Positions 24,551 through 29,803 of a stretch of DNA of 29,927 nt are shown in pieces. The notes beneath the pieces are model-generated. The model was not told where the DNA came from. It made no database searches and was given only the letters and a program-made list of their open reading frames with translations. Each line of letters starts with the position of its first letter. Position 1 is the first letter of the stretch. The position numbers and the translations under genes are program-made. Source of the stretch: Candidatus Tenderia sp. (GTDB lineage: Bacteria; Pseudomonadota; Gammaproteobacteria; Tenderiales; Tenderiaceae); NCBI GenBank assembly GCA_031416075.1, contig JANOSY010000080.1:1-29927 (forward strand), in the 5' to 3' direction.

Positions 24551-25417
24551 ATGATGCCGGAACGCTTTCAAAAACTGCGTGATATGGAGACCTTTACTGA
24601 TGGGTTGATGCAGCGCATCTTCTCGTTTCAGGAGAAGAGCCACCCCGCCTGGGATGAGAGTCAGCCCTTCACCCGGCGCATGGCCAATCTGTCGCTGCAC
24701 AATCTGATCTTCAGCAATCCGGATCGTGATCCCAAGCAGTTTGGCCCGACCATTGCCCACTACTATCCGCTGCGCGAAGAGAACCGTGCCCTGGTGCACT
24801 ACATCCGCCACGTCGCGGAAGATGCGGTGGTGCTTGATCTGCATGCCCGCAATGGTTTTATCGGCACACTGCTGGCCCATGAAGGGGCGAATGTGATCGG
24901 CTTGCGCGACCCGGTGGAAAAGCCAAATCAGATCGCCAACTTTTATGACCCGGCGGTCTATCAACTGCGTGAAGGCACGTTGGCAGATGTCGATTTTCCA
25001 GTGGATGTGGTGCTCTCCGCCTGGATGCCGATGGCCAAAAACTTCACCCCGGATATCCTTAAGCTCAAACCCAAGATGATCATCTACATCTACACCGAAC
25101 ATACCAACGAGTACAGCGGCGAGCGTCAAACCGGTACCCAAGAGGCGTTTGATAATCTGCCCGCCAATTACCGCATTGTGGATGAGTGGTCCATCGCCCG
25201 TCCGGAAAACCTGATGCAAGGTGCCTGGCCAGACCTGTCGGCCAACCTTGAAGAGAATCGGGTGGTACGGATCTATGCCGATGAGTCGATTACTGAAGTG
25301 CCGCGTTACGAGATCGACAAACCGGTACAGCCCTACGATTGGGAGGCTGAGCTGGAGATGGCGCTGTTGGCGATGGAGGCCAAGCAGGAGTTACGCTCTC
25401 GCGGCATTGAAGTATAA
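24551..25417 (+). CDS. Hypothetical protein, possible class I SAM-dependent methyltransferase-like fold
   Basis: AAGGTG RBS, 12 nt after hemE. VVLDLHARNGFIGTLLAHEGANVIGL resembles motif I (VLDLGxGxG); later VDVVLSAWMP and LKPKMIIYI strands fit the fold. Confidence 0.6.
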   Translation: MMPERFQKLRDMETFTDGLMQRIFSFQEKSHPAWDESQPFTRRMANLSLHNLIFSNPDRDPKQFGPTIAHYYPLREENRALVHYIRHVAEDAVVLDLHARNGFIGTLLAHEGANVIGLRDPVEKPNQIANFYDPAVYQLREGTLADVDFPVDVVLSAWMPMAKNFTPDILKLKPKMIIYIYTEHTNEYSGERQTGTQEAFDNLPANYRIVDEWSIARPENLMQGAWPDLSANLEENRVVRIYADESITEVPRYEIDKPVQPYDWEAELEMALLAMEAKQELRSRGIEV

Positions 25418-25535: not shown

Positions 25536-26531
25536 ATGTATACGGATGAAGACCTGGAAAGTGCCGTGAAAAAAGGTATTTTTACAGACGACTCTGTAGA
25601 GAGGTTTCGCTCTGATATTGTGAAACGAAACAACCTTCGTATAGTAGATGAAGAAAATATTAGATTGATTGCCAGTTTTAACGACATTTTTGTTGTGATT
25701 GCGTGTGGTCTGCTCTTACTCTCTTCAGGCTGGGTGACTTACAAGGCTCATCCCTCTTTTGCAACGGTGGTTGTTGCTCTGCTCTCGTGGGGGCTGGCAG
25801 AGTTTTTTGTTCTAAAGAGAAGAATGGCACTGCCTGCTATAACGCTACTCATTACATTTGTAGGGGGTGTTTTTGCCTCAATTGTCTTAATGTTTGAAAA
25901 GCAGTCAGAAGTGGTATTTATGCTGGCTGCTTTTGCGGCATCAGTTGGCGCGTGGTTACATTGGAAGCGCTTTGCCGTGCCCATAACGGTGGCGGCAGGT
26001 GCTGCGGCCATGGTGACCTTTTTTACATCCTTACTTGTATCCTTAATGCCAGAAACCAAAAGCTATCTAACGTACATGACGTTCCTAGGTGGTGCTGTCA
26101 TATTTTATATTGCTATGCGCTGGGATATGGCTGATCTGCAACGGGTATCAGCAAAATCAGACGTGGCATTTTGGCTTCACCTGGCGTCTGCCCCGCTCAT
26201 TGTGCATCCAATTTTTTCCGGCCTTGGAGTTTTGGAGGGGAATGAGAGTTTGGTTAATCTGGCAGTTATAGTCGTCTTGTATATATTACTTACGTTTGTC
26301 TCTGTCGCTATAGACAGGCGTGCATTCATGGTTTCATCTCTTGTATATGTGCTTGTTGCGCTAACCCAGATACTTAAGACGTATGGTCTTGCTGGTGATG
26401 GCTTTGCCTACGTTGGGGTGTTGATTGGTTTTTCACTTTTATTACTATCCGGGTTCTGGCAGAGGGCGCGGCGGCAGTTGGTAGTACGCTTACCAGCGTC
26501 TATTCAAAGCAGAGTGCCGCTGGTGGGTTGA
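25536..26531 (+). CDS. Polytopic membrane protein of unknown function (possibly DUF2157-like)
   Basis: Short soluble N-terminus followed by about 9-10 hydrophobic helices; SDVAFWLHL..AP.IVHP and AIDRRA motifs; visibly more AT-rich than the core genes. Confidence 0.8.
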   Translation: MYTDEDLESAVKKGIFTDDSVERFRSDIVKRNNLRIVDEENIRLIASFNDIFVVIACGLLLLSSGWVTYKAHPSFATVVVALLSWGLAEFFVLKRRMALPAITLLITFVGGVFASIVLMFEKQSEVVFMLAAFAASVGAWLHWKRFAVPITVAAGAAAMVTFFTSLLVSLMPETKSYLTYMTFLGGAVIFYIAMRWDMADLQRVSAKSDVAFWLHLASAPLIVHPIFSGLGVLEGNESLVNLAVIVVLYILLTFVSVAIDRRAFMVSSLVYVLVALTQILKTYGLAGDGFAYVGVLIGFSLLLLSGFWQRARRQLVVRLPASIQSRVPLVG

Positions 26532-26545
26532 GCGCGTGTAAGTCC

Positions 26546-27136
26546 TTAGTTGAGCGTTGCTACCTCCCTGCGTCTCCGATACATAATGAGTACCACCAGC
26601 AGAATAGATGCTATTGCTATGGCAGCGGGAAACAGTATGGTGGCAACCGAATAGTGCTCCAGTGCCATCACCACAATGGTGTTGCGTGTGCCAAACAGCG
26701 CAAAGAAGAGCAGCGACTCTGAGTGTGGGTCGGCATTTGCCTTTCTAACGGTTGGCCCAAAGCCAAGCAGGTCGACCACGGTGAGTACGATCACCGCCCA
26801 CATGGGGTCCGATGTTAAGTACCAGAGTGGCAGTGATGAAATGGCTGCCAGAAAAAACAGCCAGTCTGTTTTTGTGATGGCGACGTCGGCCCGTTTTAGG
26901 TAGGCCAACAGGGCGATAAAAATTGTGATGCTGCCTGAAACACCGATGGGCCACGCGCCCACGCCAGCGTCTGCTTCGATTTGAGCCAGAAAGACCACAA
27001 AGGTGGTGGTTCCCCATATGATCCAGGAAAAGAGATGCGGTTTTATTGCCCCCTGAATGATGCCACGCAGGTATGGATAGAACGCTACAAAAGTGAGGAC
27101 TATTGCAGCGGTGCTGAGAATCTCTTTGTAAGACAC
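26546..27136 (-). CDS. Membrane protein with two PQ-loop/SemiSWEET-like repeats
   Basis: GTG start at 27136 with an AGGAG RBS; about 7 TM segments; repeats FYPYLRGI...KPHLFSW and FGPTVRKA...PHSES. Confidence 0.7.
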   Translation of the reverse strand: MSYKEILSTAAIVLTFVAFYPYLRGIIQGAIKPHLFSWIIWGTTTFVVFLAQIEADAGVGAWPIGVSGSITIFIALLAYLKRADVAITKTDWLFFLAAISSLPLWYLTSDPMWAVIVLTVVDLLGFGPTVRKANADPHSESLLFFALFGTRNTIVVMALEHYSVATILFPAAIAIASILLVVLIMYRRRREVATLN

Positions 27137-27159
27137 AAACTCTCCTATCCTCATCATGA

Positions 27160-27236
27160 GCCATAACGTTCGAAAGTTCATGGCATCTGCCCTGGCAATT
27201 ATGCCAGCACTCAAAGCCTTCTTGTCGAGTTAAGAC
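27160..27236 (-). repeat. Degenerate attC-like site
   Basis: Minus strand: GTCTTAAC ... TGGCAT/ATGCCA hairpin ... TGAACTTTCGAAC-GTTATGGC; 23 nt before GTG 27136. Confidence 0.4.
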
Positions 27237-27338
27237 ATGCCAGCCGTTCTGGCTCTTTGGCGATGTAAATCCCAGCCGCACCTAGCTATCTCGTTACCAT
27301 CGACGGTATATTGAACCGTATATATAAAGGAGTGGCAG

Positions 27339-27395
27339 ATGGGGATCTTCCACCGCGAGAAAATTTGGGCAGCTCAGGGGGAGTCAGGGGAGTGA
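27339..27395 (+). CDS. Possible 18-aa upstream ORF (MGIFHREKIWAAQGESGE) coupled to the MotA-like gene
   Basis: AAAGGAG (27326-27332) lies 6 nt before ATG 27339; the TGA overlaps GTG 27392 as GTGA. Confidence 0.3.
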   Translation: MGIFHREKIWAAQGESGE

Positions 27396-28387
27396 ATCAA
27401 CAGCCATACCGCACCTTAATTTTGTGGACCATCTGGGCCAGTGCCGCCTTGGTCATCTATCTTACGTTGTACCGTGATACCGAAGTCTGGAGTTTTGTGC
27501 AGACCGACCCGAGCCGTATCACCTGGCTCATTATCGGGCTCTTTCTGTTGGGTATGTTGGGTAGCTTTGTGGTGACATTGATGGTCACCAAGGAGTCGGT
27601 GCGTTGTATGCACCTCAATGCAGCGGCAAGTCAGGGGGGGCTGGATGCCATCACCATCGAATCGGAAAAACGGGCCGCAGACCGCTTTTTTCACTCAGTA
27701 AAATCGACCATGGAGCGCAAGGGTGAACCCGAGGTTGAAACCCTGCTGCATGTTGAGCTGGCCGTTTACGAGCGTATCAACCACACCATTGAAGTGATTG
27801 GTAACCTGCTCATCACTCTGGGGCTGATTGGAACCGTTATGGGGTTGACCATGACCCTTTCCGGACTCAGCAGCTCCCTCGATTCACTGGGCCATGACCA
27901 GGAGATGATGCTCCTGGGACTACGCCACGCCATGTCCGGCATGGGTACCGCTTTTTATACCACCCTGCTGGGTGCGGTGTTGGGGGGTATCCTGCTACGC
28001 ATGTTTGCACAGCTCACCTTGCACGGCATTGAAGGGCTGCATGACAACCTGCTGCGCATCTGCCTAGTCTACTGCTCTCCCGATTATGCACAGACGTTAG
28101 AACGTGATGTGCGACTGCTCAACGAAGAGTTGCGTCAGCTTGACCACAACGTACAGACCATGAAACAGAGTTTTGCCGAGTCGCGCCAGATGGTCACCGA
28201 GTTTCGCGAAGAGATAAAACGGTTGGGCGAGAGCGAGTCAGGTGAACAGGGCCAAGAGCCATTGCGGGTCATCATCAGCCGCCACCAGGAGTACTGCGAA
28301 GCGCTACGGCAGCAGATGCACATGTTAGCCGTGACCAACAAACCGTGGTGGATCAGACTCTATGAACTGTTCCGGCCCAGACAGTAA
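27392..28387 (+). CDS. MotA/TolQ/ExbB (ZorA-like) ion-channel protein with C-terminal coiled coil
   Basis: Four TM segments; ITLGLIGTVMG and GMGTAFYTTLLG channel motifs; heptad-rich tail. Start taken at GTG 27392 (ORF track extends it to TTG 27311). Confidence 0.88.
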   Translation: MNQQPYRTLILWTIWASAALVIYLTLYRDTEVWSFVQTDPSRITWLIIGLFLLGMLGSFVVTLMVTKESVRCMHLNAAASQGGLDAITIESEKRAADRFFHSVKSTMERKGEPEVETLLHVELAVYERINHTIEVIGNLLITLGLIGTVMGLTMTLSGLSSSLDSLGHDQEMMLLGLRHAMSGMGTAFYTTLLGAVLGGILLRMFAQLTLHGIEGLHDNLLRICLVYCSPDYAQTLERDVRLLNEELRQLDHNVQTMKQSFAESRQMVTEFREEIKRLGESESGEQGQEPLRVIISRHQEYCEALRQQMHMLAVTNKPWWIRLYELFRPRQ

Positions 28388-28398
28388 AGTGATCCACA

Positions 28399-29181
28399 AT
28401 GAGAAAAAAACGCCGCAACTCCGAATCAAACATCCATGAGAGCTTCTCTGATCTGGCGCTCATGATGTTAATGACCTTTATCTTTCTTCTGGTCATCATC
28501 CTCATCACCGCCAAGAGTCAGGAGGGCAGTGAGTTTCCACGCCTCAAAAAAGAGGCCGCAGCCATGAAAGAACGGCTGGCAGTGATGGGAGAGGATAATC
28601 AGCGCCTCTACAACGAACTGGGTGATATGAGCGACATGAGTGGCGAGGCGCAGCTGGAGCAGGTGCTGCAAGCGGTTGGGCTGAATGATGCAAAAGGGCG
28701 CAAAGATTTTGACCTGTTTGTAAAAGGGCTGGAGGCGATCCCCGGCAAAGATCTGCATCTCATCATCGACGCCACCGGCTCCATGCACGGTGTCTCCGGT
28801 TTTCTGGTACCACTGTTGCGGGTCATCGTCGCCCGCTCCCACAAAGATGTGTCAGCAATCACCTGGTTTGCCGATGGCAAAACCAATACCTATCAGGGCA
28901 CCATGGGTGAGATGCTCGATAGTTTCATGAAAGGGGCCCCGTTTATCGGCGGCAACGAAACCATTGGCGAAGCGTTTTTCCGCGCCAAAGAGAATGCCCC
29001 GGTGCCCGGCGCCTACATACTGCTGGGTGACGAACCTTCGGATGATCGCATCTATTATCTGGATATCCCCGCCCCCGTTTTCACCATCCCCATCGGCCGC
29101 GCCGATCCCAACACCTGGCACGAGTACAACACCCTTGCTGAAAAGACCCATGGCAAGTTGTTGCAGTTAATCTTTCAGTAG
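28399..29181 (+). CDS. MotB/ZorB-like TM helix, coiled coil and vWA (MIDAS) domain protein
   Basis: Basic N-terminus, ESFSDLALMMLMTFIFLLVII (Asp18), coiled coil, LHLIIDATGSM (Asp124), GGNET, YILLGDEP (Asp211), PVFTI, LAEKTHG. Confidence 0.8.
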   Translation: MRKKRRNSESNIHESFSDLALMMLMTFIFLLVIILITAKSQEGSEFPRLKKEAAAMKERLAVMGEDNQRLYNELGDMSDMSGEAQLEQVLQAVGLNDAKGRKDFDLFVKGLEAIPGKDLHLIIDATGSMHGVSGFLVPLLRVIVARSHKDVSAITWFADGKTNTYQGTMGEMLDSFMKGAPFIGGNETIGEAFFRAKENAPVPGAYILLGDEPSDDRIYYLDIPAPVFTIPIGRADPNTWHEYNTLAEKTHGKLLQLIFQ

Positions 29182-29254: not shown

Positions 29255-29803
29255 ATGGAAATTATGGGTATAGAAAAAATAGGTGTAAGACGCTTATATG
29301 ATGCGCTTGGTTGTAGTGTTTTTGATGGCGTCCCGATCCAAGTTGCTGGTCCTATTGGTAGTGGAAAAAATGTTTCAATATACATTGGCCCAACTCCACC
29401 ATTAGGCGTAATGCGCATTGAGGCCGATCAGTATCATGTGCCTGGAAAGCAAGCAAAGATTATGAATACGGACATTGGTTATCAGTCTGATTGCTTTTTG
29501 GAAATTGTACTTTCATTTGATTATGAAGCTACGGAAGAAATATCAAGTGGGTTGCTAAATAAAGATCAGAAGTCAAGGGAATATCTCCTTGGGATTGTTG
29601 AAAAAGAATTAGAATTATTTGAAAAATTAATTGATTCTATCGTCGGTATTATTGGTCTGAAATTTCACCGTCAATTTACTCTAAAGAATTTGATAGAGAA
29701 TTCGATGATATTGTCTGGTCCCGAGCCGGTAAGTAGTATTGTAGGCCCAAGTGTAGAAATGCTTGAATCAGTCAATCTTGTTGACCAAGCTAGTGTACTG
29801 TAA
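29255..29803 (+). pseudogene. AT-rich hypothetical ORF, probably truncated by IS insertion
   Basis: Markedly AT-rich. The last codons (AGT GTA CTG TAA) and the stop lie within the putative IS630 end at CTAG 29790-29793. Confidence 0.5.

Follow-up and report, generated by a model that had tools for sequence, protein, structure and literature searches.

Ion-driven 5:2 motors power flagella, TonB-dependent uptake, the Tol-Pal system, gliding and Zorya defence, and each of them has been understood once the periplasmic or cytoplasmic part that couples it to its task was identified. Do two adjacent genes of Candidatus Tenderia sp. encode a motor of this kind, with an adhesion domain at the end of its axle? 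The genes, here called A and B, occupy positions 27,392–28,387 and 28,399–29,181 of contig JANOSY010000080.1, on the forward strand, as do all features of the pair given below. The window that was analysed is this whole contig (C80 in our numbering; 29,927 nt) of a 3.49-Mb assembly that is 99.98% complete. A preliminary description, drawn from the letters of the window, had read the pair as a MotA/ZorA-like channel together with a MotB-like helix fused to a von Willebrand factor type A (vWA) domain with a metal ion-dependent adhesion site (MIDAS). Both halves of that reading hold: A belongs to the MotA/ExbB/TolQ family, and B joins a membrane helix with an invariant Asp to a vWA domain with a complete, conserved MIDAS motif. 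With a probability of about 0.7, the two proteins make up a membrane motor of the MotAB/ExbBD/TolQR/ZorAB class that is driven by ions, most likely protons, and in which a B dimer would grip a periplasmic ligand through its MIDAS heads.

The channel gene and its vWA-headed partner

Genes A and B are real genes and not chance open reading frames (ORFs), since B has at least 533 relatives in a word-indexed protein collection and 143 encoding loci, and both products give confident folds, with a predicted local distance difference test score (pLDDT) of 85.9 for A and 74.7 for B in AlphaFold2 models. The longest ORF of gene A runs from a TTG at 27,311 to 28,387, a start without support from homologues. 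The N-termini of 70 homologous ORFs align with an in-frame GTG at 27,392, and a Shine-Dalgarno-like GGGGGAG, read directly at 27,377–27,383, precedes that codon by 8 nt; this GTG is therefore the likely start, as the preliminary description had placed it. Gene A ends with its stop at 28,387, and the ATG of gene B follows at 28,399. The 11-nt spacer between them (28,388–28,398, read directly) has no clear ribosome-binding site, so that one operon is likely.

Gene A encodes a channel subunit of 331 aa, assigned by PF01618, its AlphaFold2 model and Foldseek. It matched Pfam PF01618 (MotA_ExbB) with 39.5 bits (cut-off 22.9; E 5.7e-10), and a profile scan of the whole genome recovered the same place. 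The protein has four hydrophobic segments, the four transmembrane (TM) helices that had been described, and its N-terminus lies inside by charge count. TM1 (aa 8–27), a short acidic periplasmic loop and TM2 (aa 41–68) are encoded at 27,413–27,595, as judged from hydropathy and charge count. They are followed by a cytoplasmic loop, aa 69–131 (27,596–27,784), with eight Lys or Arg residues and conserved R98, E116, E122 and R128. The pore helices TM3 (aa 132–159) and TM4 (aa 184–210; together 27,785–28,021) fall in the region matched by PF01618, and a cytoplasmic helical tail of 121 residues, aa 211–331 (28,022–28,384), was delimited by conservation, the AlphaFold2 model and hydropathy. The two short acidic loops face out; the 63-residue loop and the tail, both rich in Lys and Arg, face in.

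Residues W12, W15, D39, T44 and W45 are invariant among the 30 aligned homologues. The previously noted TLGLIGTV and GMGTAFYTT motifs are present, the first as ITLGLIGTV in TM3 (T142, T148) and the second in TM4 (T190, T191), and both are almost unchanged across homologues. All four threonines are kept in 30/30 homologues, with identity down to 34%. We take them to be the counterparts of the essential threonines of ExbB, TolQ and MotA, partly from the known biology of these motors and partly after PMC12204202. The tail carries a near-invariant C224-x3-C228 pair just below TM4 and closes with a W-W-x-R-L-like end; it is helical in the AlphaFold2 model. In the Foldseek search with this model the rows listed were all A subunits of 5:2 motors (ExbB, TolQ, ZorA, PomA and MotA), in keeping with the MotA/ZorA-like label first given to A.

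In its own genome (G000), A stands apart from its paralogues. Seven other PF01618 genes are present, each beside a canonical partner (on C14, C43, C45, C50, C56, C58 and C90), and they make up two MotAB sets (MotB_plug plus OmpA), one TolQR set and four ExbBD sets. Gene A is the only paralogue without an ExbD or MotB neighbour; it has only B. Of the four ExbBD sets, two contain ExbD genes in tandem and one encodes an ExbB-like protein of 582 aa.

Gene B encodes a single-pass protein of 260 aa, in which a trans-pore helix with an Asp leads through a helical stalk to a vWA head. Five of its first 13 residues are Lys or Arg, and one TM helix follows (aa 14–42; 28,438–28,524; from hydropathy and conservation), opening with E-S-F-S-D18. 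The codon for Asp18 lies at 28,450–28,452. Conservation in B was counted over 192 distinct family sequences, and Asp18, whose conservation had been named as decisive for the motor reading, is kept in 192/192. B subunits of the MotB/ExbD type are marked by one N-terminal TM segment that bears an invariant Asp and by a gene that directly follows that of the A subunit, and B agrees with them in both. The N-terminus resembles ZorB of PADLOC (E 9.5e-5); among 30 B members there are sub-threshold Pfam matches to ExbD (7/30, best E 0.021) and MotB_plug (6/30), and the best match among the sequences of solved structures is a MotB-like N-terminal domain (E 0.047). No OmpA-like domain was matched by Pfam in the window protein or the 30 members, the ExbD matches remain sub-threshold, and the fold of residues 113–260 is that of a vWA domain. 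Only the helix is thus common to B and the MotB and ExbD families, of which B is no member.

Beyond the membrane, a periplasmic helical stalk is formed by aa 43–113 (28,525–28,737), as taken from the secondary structure of the AlphaFold2 model (pTM, the predicted template-modelling score, 0.63 overall). The TM helix continues to about aa 77 (helix 13–77), and helices 82–92 and 98–113 follow. The confidently helical part is short, about 35 residues beyond the membrane. By the known dimensions of the envelope, the stalk could presumably reach the region of the wall and not the outer membrane.

The C-terminal part of B, aa 114–260 (28,738–29,178), has a genuine vWA fold in which the MIDAS motif is complete and conserved; this confirms the vWA/MIDAS assignment of the preliminary description and sets aside an OmpA or ExbD domain. 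In the AlphaFold2 model it is a compact six-stranded alpha/beta domain with pLDDT mostly 72–92. A VIA-align comparison with 48,161 chains gave, in the 50 rows listed, Z 10.2–12.9, root-mean-square deviation (rmsd) 2.6–3.6 A and 134–158 aligned residues, covering model residues of about 113–260. The rows that could be named are of vWA/integrin-I type: Rpn10, ArnB, BatB, integrins, collagen VI, complement factor B/C2, TFIIH p44 and Sec23/24. Foldseek against the PDB gave 23 matches at E <= 0.001; the top one was the VWA domain of CLCA1 (E 3.2e-5), and integrin I domains and calcium-channel alpha2-delta were among the others.

The MIDAS motif, D-x-T/S-x-S...T...D, is formed by D124 (codon 28,768–28,770), T126, S128 (28,780–28,782), T188 (28,960–28,962) and D211 (29,029–29,031). 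In the B family D124, S128, D211 and a Thr or Ser at 126 are each present in 192/192 sequences, and T188 in 183/192. T188 and D211 are taken to be the MIDAS positions from the vWA consensus and from their places, after helix 169–179 and at the end of strand 205–210. Like the motifs of A, those that the preliminary description gave for B are all found in the sequence. By analogy with integrin I and vWA domains, in which the behaviour of such sites is well established, this intact MIDAS is predicted to hold a divalent cation and to clamp an acidic residue of a protein ligand. The sequence collections place the head in no curated family. For residues 110–260 there was no match in Pfam, NCBIfam or PADLOC and no credible one among the sequences of solved structures. 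An exhaustive phmmer search of B against 1.84 billion representatives gave 26 matches at E <= 0.001, among which the only other named architecture was a borderline LysM fusion. This protein, P0146, is a distant relative of the B head with a signal-like N-terminus and a LysM match of 20.5 bits (cut-off 20.9).

The two genes are inherited as a unit. One-genome-per-species contigs contained 143 loci encoding B, of which 80 were compared. By the names in the sequence records, the 143 loci come from uncultured Gammaproteobacteria (Ca. Tenderia, Chromatiaceae, Thiotrichaceae, Ectothiorhodospiraceae and Chromatiales) and from Zetaproteobacteria/Mariprofundaceae. Co-conservation of A and B had been set beforehand as a test of the pairing. 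Wherever the sequence extends more than 1 kb upstream of B, A is the gene directly before it (72/72 loci); over all loci the count is 77/80, and in the remaining three the sequence starts no more than 61 nt from B. No second A or B was found at any locus (a single one of each in 80/80). In comparisons between the 58 loci where both ORFs are complete, the identity of the A proteins rises and falls with that of the B proteins (r = 0.91), as is expected of any two co-inherited genes, and B is the more conserved, with a mean pairwise identity of 59% vs 50% for A.

Among 61 related genomes B is present in 18, including its own: 14/16 other genomes of the same family and 3/44 from other families. 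Two genomes of the family have two complete A-B pairs, G010 (C1, near 3.10 Mb and 0.99 Mb; the B proteins 64% and 56% identical to that of the window) and G005 (C86 and C88; 61% and 59%), so that the whole module was duplicated or acquired twice. In an even sample of the class, full-length A orthologues (at least 408 bits) occur in 22/301 genomes from 12 families, and in eight families both sampled genomes carry A. The RuBisCO large subunit (PF00016, E <= 1e-20) was found in 22/22 holders of the pair vs 116/279 genomes without it. The one-sided Fisher p of 1.3e-8 assumes independent genomes, which holders drawn from 12 families are not. The RuBisCO link and the Zetaproteobacterial loci mark the pair as a trait of chemolithoautotrophs; the link itself may stem from common ancestry and habitat and not from function.

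Relation to described and predicted motors

A literature search found a single source, PMC12204202 (Mol Biol Evol 2025), that describes a gene of TolQ/MotA type whose partner is a vWA protein with a trans-pore helix (TPH). According to the available text of that paper, membrane-tethered vWA proteins co-occur tightly with tolQ homologues, with no tolR or exbD, and carry a TolR/ExbD-like trans-pore helix with a conserved Asp, 'predominantly in heterologous pairs'. The gene set was seeded from Idiomarina, TPH-vWA was modelled with AlphaFold 3 inside a TolQ-like pentamer, the function is given as unknown, and the vWA-headed axle is proposed to be a force transmitter (PMC12204202). The design of a vWA-headed motor is thus already in print, as a computational prediction of 2025. 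The caution of the preliminary description about novelty was well placed, and the surprise that the pair holds is limited by this earlier publication of the idea.

The present locus has much in common with the TPH-vWA class as the available text of PMC12204202 presents it. In both, tolR, exbD and motB are missing, and the gene that directly follows the MotA/ExbB/TolQ-type one encodes a helix with an Asp, then a coiled coil and a vWA domain on the periplasmic side. The Asp-bearing helix of the class lacks the SHLS motif, and likewise no S-H-L-S is visible around ESFSD18 of B. A concrete comparison is offered by locus L108, from an Oceanococcus metagenome-assembled genome according to its record, which is the nearest outgroup of A in the 301-genome sample (84.5 bits vs at least 408 for the orthologues). 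It has a 264-aa A-like gene followed by two genes for Asp-helix/coiled-coil/vWA proteins of 335 and 349 aa, one of which passes Pfam VWA_2 (29.6 bits vs 27) and is annotated 'VWA domain-containing protein'. L108 was counted as a pair-type TPH-vWA locus by its fit to the available description in PMC12204202.

The PF01618 match region of A also aligns with the A-like gene of L108, and hhalign of the A family against the L108 A-like protein gave 98.9% (E 1.2e-17). The B family aligned with 19 pair-type proteins at 98.5% (E 2.8e-15) over 182 columns, from the helix to vWA strand 4, at an identity of 18%. Both B and the L108 vWA proteins have ESFSD in the helix, D-x-T-G-S-M, and G-D at strand 4. 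There are also differences. The vWA genes of the class come predominantly in heterologous pairs in the available text of PMC12204202, and there are two in L108, whereas a single B is present at all 80 loci. B has 260 aa, compared with 303–356 aa in the pair type, whose members carry PF00092 or PF13519 while the Pfam VWA models miss B. A has 331 aa with the 121-residue tail; the L108 A-like protein has 264 aa and no tail. By sequence comparison the family thus appears to be a remote sister of the predicted TPH-vWA class, set apart from it, as that class is described, by a single B, a smaller head and a tailed A.

Among the characterised motors, MotAB/PomAB are similar in topology. Their A subunit, like A, has four TM helices, an N-terminus inside and a cytoplasmic TM2-TM3 loop, and their B subunit, like B, is encoded by the downstream gene and has a cytoplasmic N-terminal stub and an Asp at the cytoplasmic end of its single TM helix. 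Unlike MotAB/PomAB, the pair has no MotA_N, MotB_plug or OmpA domain, all of which occur in the two true MotAB pairs of this genome, and no flagellar genes nearby, and B has a vWA head in place of a peptidoglycan binder. ZorAB are the best PADLOC matches (ZorA, E 2.2e-8; ZorB, E 9.5e-5), their chains are among the fold matches, and their A subunit also has a helical tail. The tail of ZorA has several hundred residues and that of A 121; against the NCBIfam ZorA models A scores 19.7 bits vs cut-offs of 100 and 500. In B a vWA domain replaces the peptidoglycan-binding domain of ZorB, ZorC, ZorD and ZorE are missing, and the context is one of housekeeping genes.

With ExbBD-TonB and TolQRA, A shares the Pfam family and its top Foldseek matches (E 1e-3 to 3e-3). 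ExbB and TolQ have three TM segments, and A has four. Unlike these systems, the pair has no ExbD-fold domain in B and no TonB- or TolA-like gene, and a TolQR set and four ExbBD sets are encoded elsewhere in the genome. A 5:2 motor in which the axle subunit carries a periplasmic output and no wall anchor has a precedent in GldLM/PorLM, which serves gliding and type IX secretion. GldM spans the periplasm, and the stalk of B is short; neither GldL nor GldM was matched in sequence or fold in the lists obtained for A and B.

A proposed mechanism and its alternatives

How A and B would assemble, conduct ions, rotate and bind a metal and a ligand, and in what numbers and to what physiological end, we infer along the following lines. 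By analogy with characterised motors, five A subunits would surround a homodimer of B, a homodimer since there is a single B gene. Protons would pass between Asp18 of each B helix and the threonines of TM3 and TM4 of A, and their flow would drive rotation of A5 and B2 relative to each other. The stalk of B would carry the vWA head, in which the divalent cation of the MIDAS would clamp an acidic residue of a periplasmic or wall-proximal ligand and so form a load-bearing link.

Which part moves can be answered in two ways. B may be tethered, as with MotB and ZorB, so that the four-TM A ring would turn and act through its cytoplasmic loop and tail. Alternatively, the vWA-headed axle may be the force-transmitting output, as is proposed in the available text of PMC12204202. 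We lean slightly to B as the tethered part, in view of the short stalk, with its helix ending near aa 77, the MotA/ZorA-like four-TM A with conserved loop and tail, the capacity of a MIDAS to bear load and the LysM-bearing relative of the head. The bonds formed by MIDAS domains are known to bear load.

Several points weigh against a vWA-headed motor. The Foldseek matches of A are weak (best E 1e-3, rmsd 6–8 A, TM-score 0.36–0.56), and the profile search of A against the sequences of solved structures gave only Campylobacter jejuni MotA at E 0.004. No Pfam VWA family matches the window B or its C-terminal part even at E <= 10, and VWA_4 matches 3/30 B members, with a best E of 0.046. As no curated VWA model matches, membership of B in the vWA superfamily rests on its fold, its motif and the profile link to VWA-annotated relatives. 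The stalk has pLDDT 51–77, and its length is uncertain for that reason. No conserved partner gene at the 80 loci indicates the ligand or a cytoplasmic target, and the Asp18-threonine contact and the 5:2 stoichiometry are set by analogy. A complex prediction with four copies of A(1–215) and two of B(1–65) scored 0.01; this 4:2 design is unnatural, and the score speaks neither for nor against binding.

The alternative that survives best is a non-rotary device, a ligand-gated ion channel or envelope sensor in which the MIDAS head would sense a cue in the periplasm, for instance a divalent metal or a protein of the envelope, and would gate a proton leak or signal through the tail of A. A MIDAS is by nature a metal site, and here it is invariant; the holders are RuBisCO-bearing lineages that include iron-oxidising Zetaproteobacteria; the tail of A has its near-invariant C224/C228 pair; and no mechanical partner gene is conserved nearby. 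This explanation is nevertheless improbable. In Asp18 and the pore threonines the pair shows just the conservation of the known motors, and the long helical stalk would suit the bearing of load. No characterised MotA/ExbB member paired with an Asp-bearing helix is known to work other than as a motor.

The preliminary description had also suggested that the pair might act on phage, and a minimal Zorya-like anti-phage module would be one form of this: the head would detect a perturbed envelope or a phage protein, and the tail of A would relay the signal to an effector encoded elsewhere. The PADLOC likeness to ZorA and ZorB, the helical tail of A and the variable spot just downstream of B are in its favour. 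It is very unlikely all the same, as PADLOC found no ZorC, ZorD or ZorE among the 22 ORFs scanned in the window, with only dGTPase and SNase-type matches far upstream, and A falls far below the ZorA cut-offs. Moreover, B has no peptidoglycan-binding domain, the tail of A is limited to 121 residues, and the pair is stable in its lineage (14/16 genomes of the family) with housekeeping flanks in every clade-specific arrangement seen. The suggested link to phage was abandoned on these grounds. A placement in a defence island, which was to be looked for by enrichment, was likewise rejected: PADLOC detected no defence system, and nothing of the kind lies next to the pair.

It is hardly credible that A and B form no complex at all, B being a free-standing membrane-anchored vWA adhesin or an FtsL/DivIC-like coiled coil and A having another partner, since the weak DivIC matches in 16/30 B members (best E 7e-5), the name 'FtsL' given to two of 120 listed relatives (all devoid of Pfam domains and otherwise 'hypothetical') and the lack of a significant sequence match between B and solved ExbD or MotB chains (best E 0.047) are opposed by strict adjacency at 72/72 loci from Gammaproteobacteria to Zetaproteobacteria, by an invariant membrane-embedded Asp18, energetically costly unless functional, and by the position of A as the one PF01618 paralogue of its genome without an ExbD or MotB neighbour.

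For the motor formed by A and B, the most likely role is a housekeeping envelope function of chemolithoautotrophs, and not phage defence. A more specific proposal is speculative and improbable: the pair could be a dedicated envelope motor of these organisms, driven by the proton gradient, whose MIDAS 'catch' head holds, moves or turns over part of their periplasmic energy-harvesting apparatus, such as electron-uptake cytochromes or the handling of mineral or sulfur deposits. Holders that all have RuBisCO, the Zetaproteobacterial loci and neighbours for cytochrome c, a COX1-like protein and thioredoxin or for polyferredoxin allow this proposal and do not show it. If true, it would mean a delivery of force in the periplasm that is independent of TonB and TolA.

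A metal-dependent, integrin-like adhesion head at the end of the axle would be a coupling principle new to the 5:2 motors. The pair looks to be a good entry point for experiment, with two genes, small proteins (331 and 260 aa), clear residues for mutation (D18, D124, S128 and D211) and strong conservation. In the uncultured sulfur and iron oxidisers that carry the pair, the ligand could point to an envelope process that has gone unrecognised.

Genomic setting of the pair

The pair stands in the window after a block of core genes: SNase, malic enzyme, citrate synthase, PBP1A, pilMNOPQ, aroK, aroB, dGTPase, an AAA+SPOR protein, gltB, gltD and hemE. As had been stated, no tonB, tolA, flagellar or zorC/D/E genes are near it; none was detected among the six flanking ORFs (Pfam and PADLOC) or the 16 further ORFs of the window. 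The description of the locus as an accessory region was right for the immediate flanks, which vary, and not for the pair itself, which is fixed beside hemE in related genera and lies at the end of the core block. The neighbours differ by clade: hemE with a 288-aa protein, fructosamine kinase, DUF1820, a Zn-peptidase, phosphoglycerate mutase and others. There is no conserved third gene at the pair; after A (70 loci) and B (69 loci), the commonest ORF cluster is found at 19/80 loci.

Two arrangements involve redox proteins. At about 17/80 loci (L040, L049, L052, L053, L067, L069, L070, L078, L085, L090 and others) a divergent set upstream of A encodes a dihaem cytochrome c, a cytochrome c, a COX1-like protein of 202 aa, a thioredoxin-like protein and a 150-aa protein. 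At about 10/80 loci, among them L057, L064–L066, L068, L079, L083 and L099, a polyferredoxin (Fer4_18/Fer4_5) is encoded downstream of B. In a metatranscriptome of Ca. Tenderia electrophaga, the available text reports a polyferredoxin and three hypothetical proteins with higher expression at lower electrode potential, in a region syntenic with Mariprofundus (PMC5371394). It is mentioned as background and enters no claim on A or B.

A gene for a 288-aa protein without a Pfam match (24,551–25,417 in the window) stands between hemE and the pair, an arrangement of this family that recurs at a few loci outside it (a cluster at 7/80). The protein has a Rossmann-like V-L-D-L-H-A-R-N-G, by eye like methyltransferase motif I. 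In this genus only, the 288-aa gene is separated from A by two ORFs for multi-pass membrane proteins without a family (25,536–27,214; 331 aa on the forward and 222 aa on the reverse strand), with a G+C content of 0.49–0.50 vs 0.57–0.585 upstream. The 222-aa ORF is common to genomes of the same genus only, and the 331-aa ORF was found at none of the seven related loci compared.

Downstream of B in the window is an unrelated ORF of 182 aa without a family (29,255–29,803), and the contig ends soon after. The stretch from B to the fructosamine-kinase gene is a small islet whose content varies. In G003, a sister genome of the same genus (L013:8641–9524, reverse strand), the region directly downstream of B has a 146-aa ORF of the Tae4 family, amidase effectors of type VI secretion systems (PF14113, E 4e-20). 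A 155-aa ORF beside it may be the immunity partner, which is a guess.

A third MotA-like module was seen in other Gammaproteobacteria, at loci L109, L111, L112, L115, L116 and L117. It consists of an A-like gene for about 217–277 aa and a gene for a protein of about 200 aa with an Asp-bearing helix, D-P-F-T-D-L-L-F-N..., and no Pfam domain. A membrane protein of 144–178 aa is encoded at five of the six loci (not at L111), and at L112 the module is followed by a 496-aa vWA-FHA protein.

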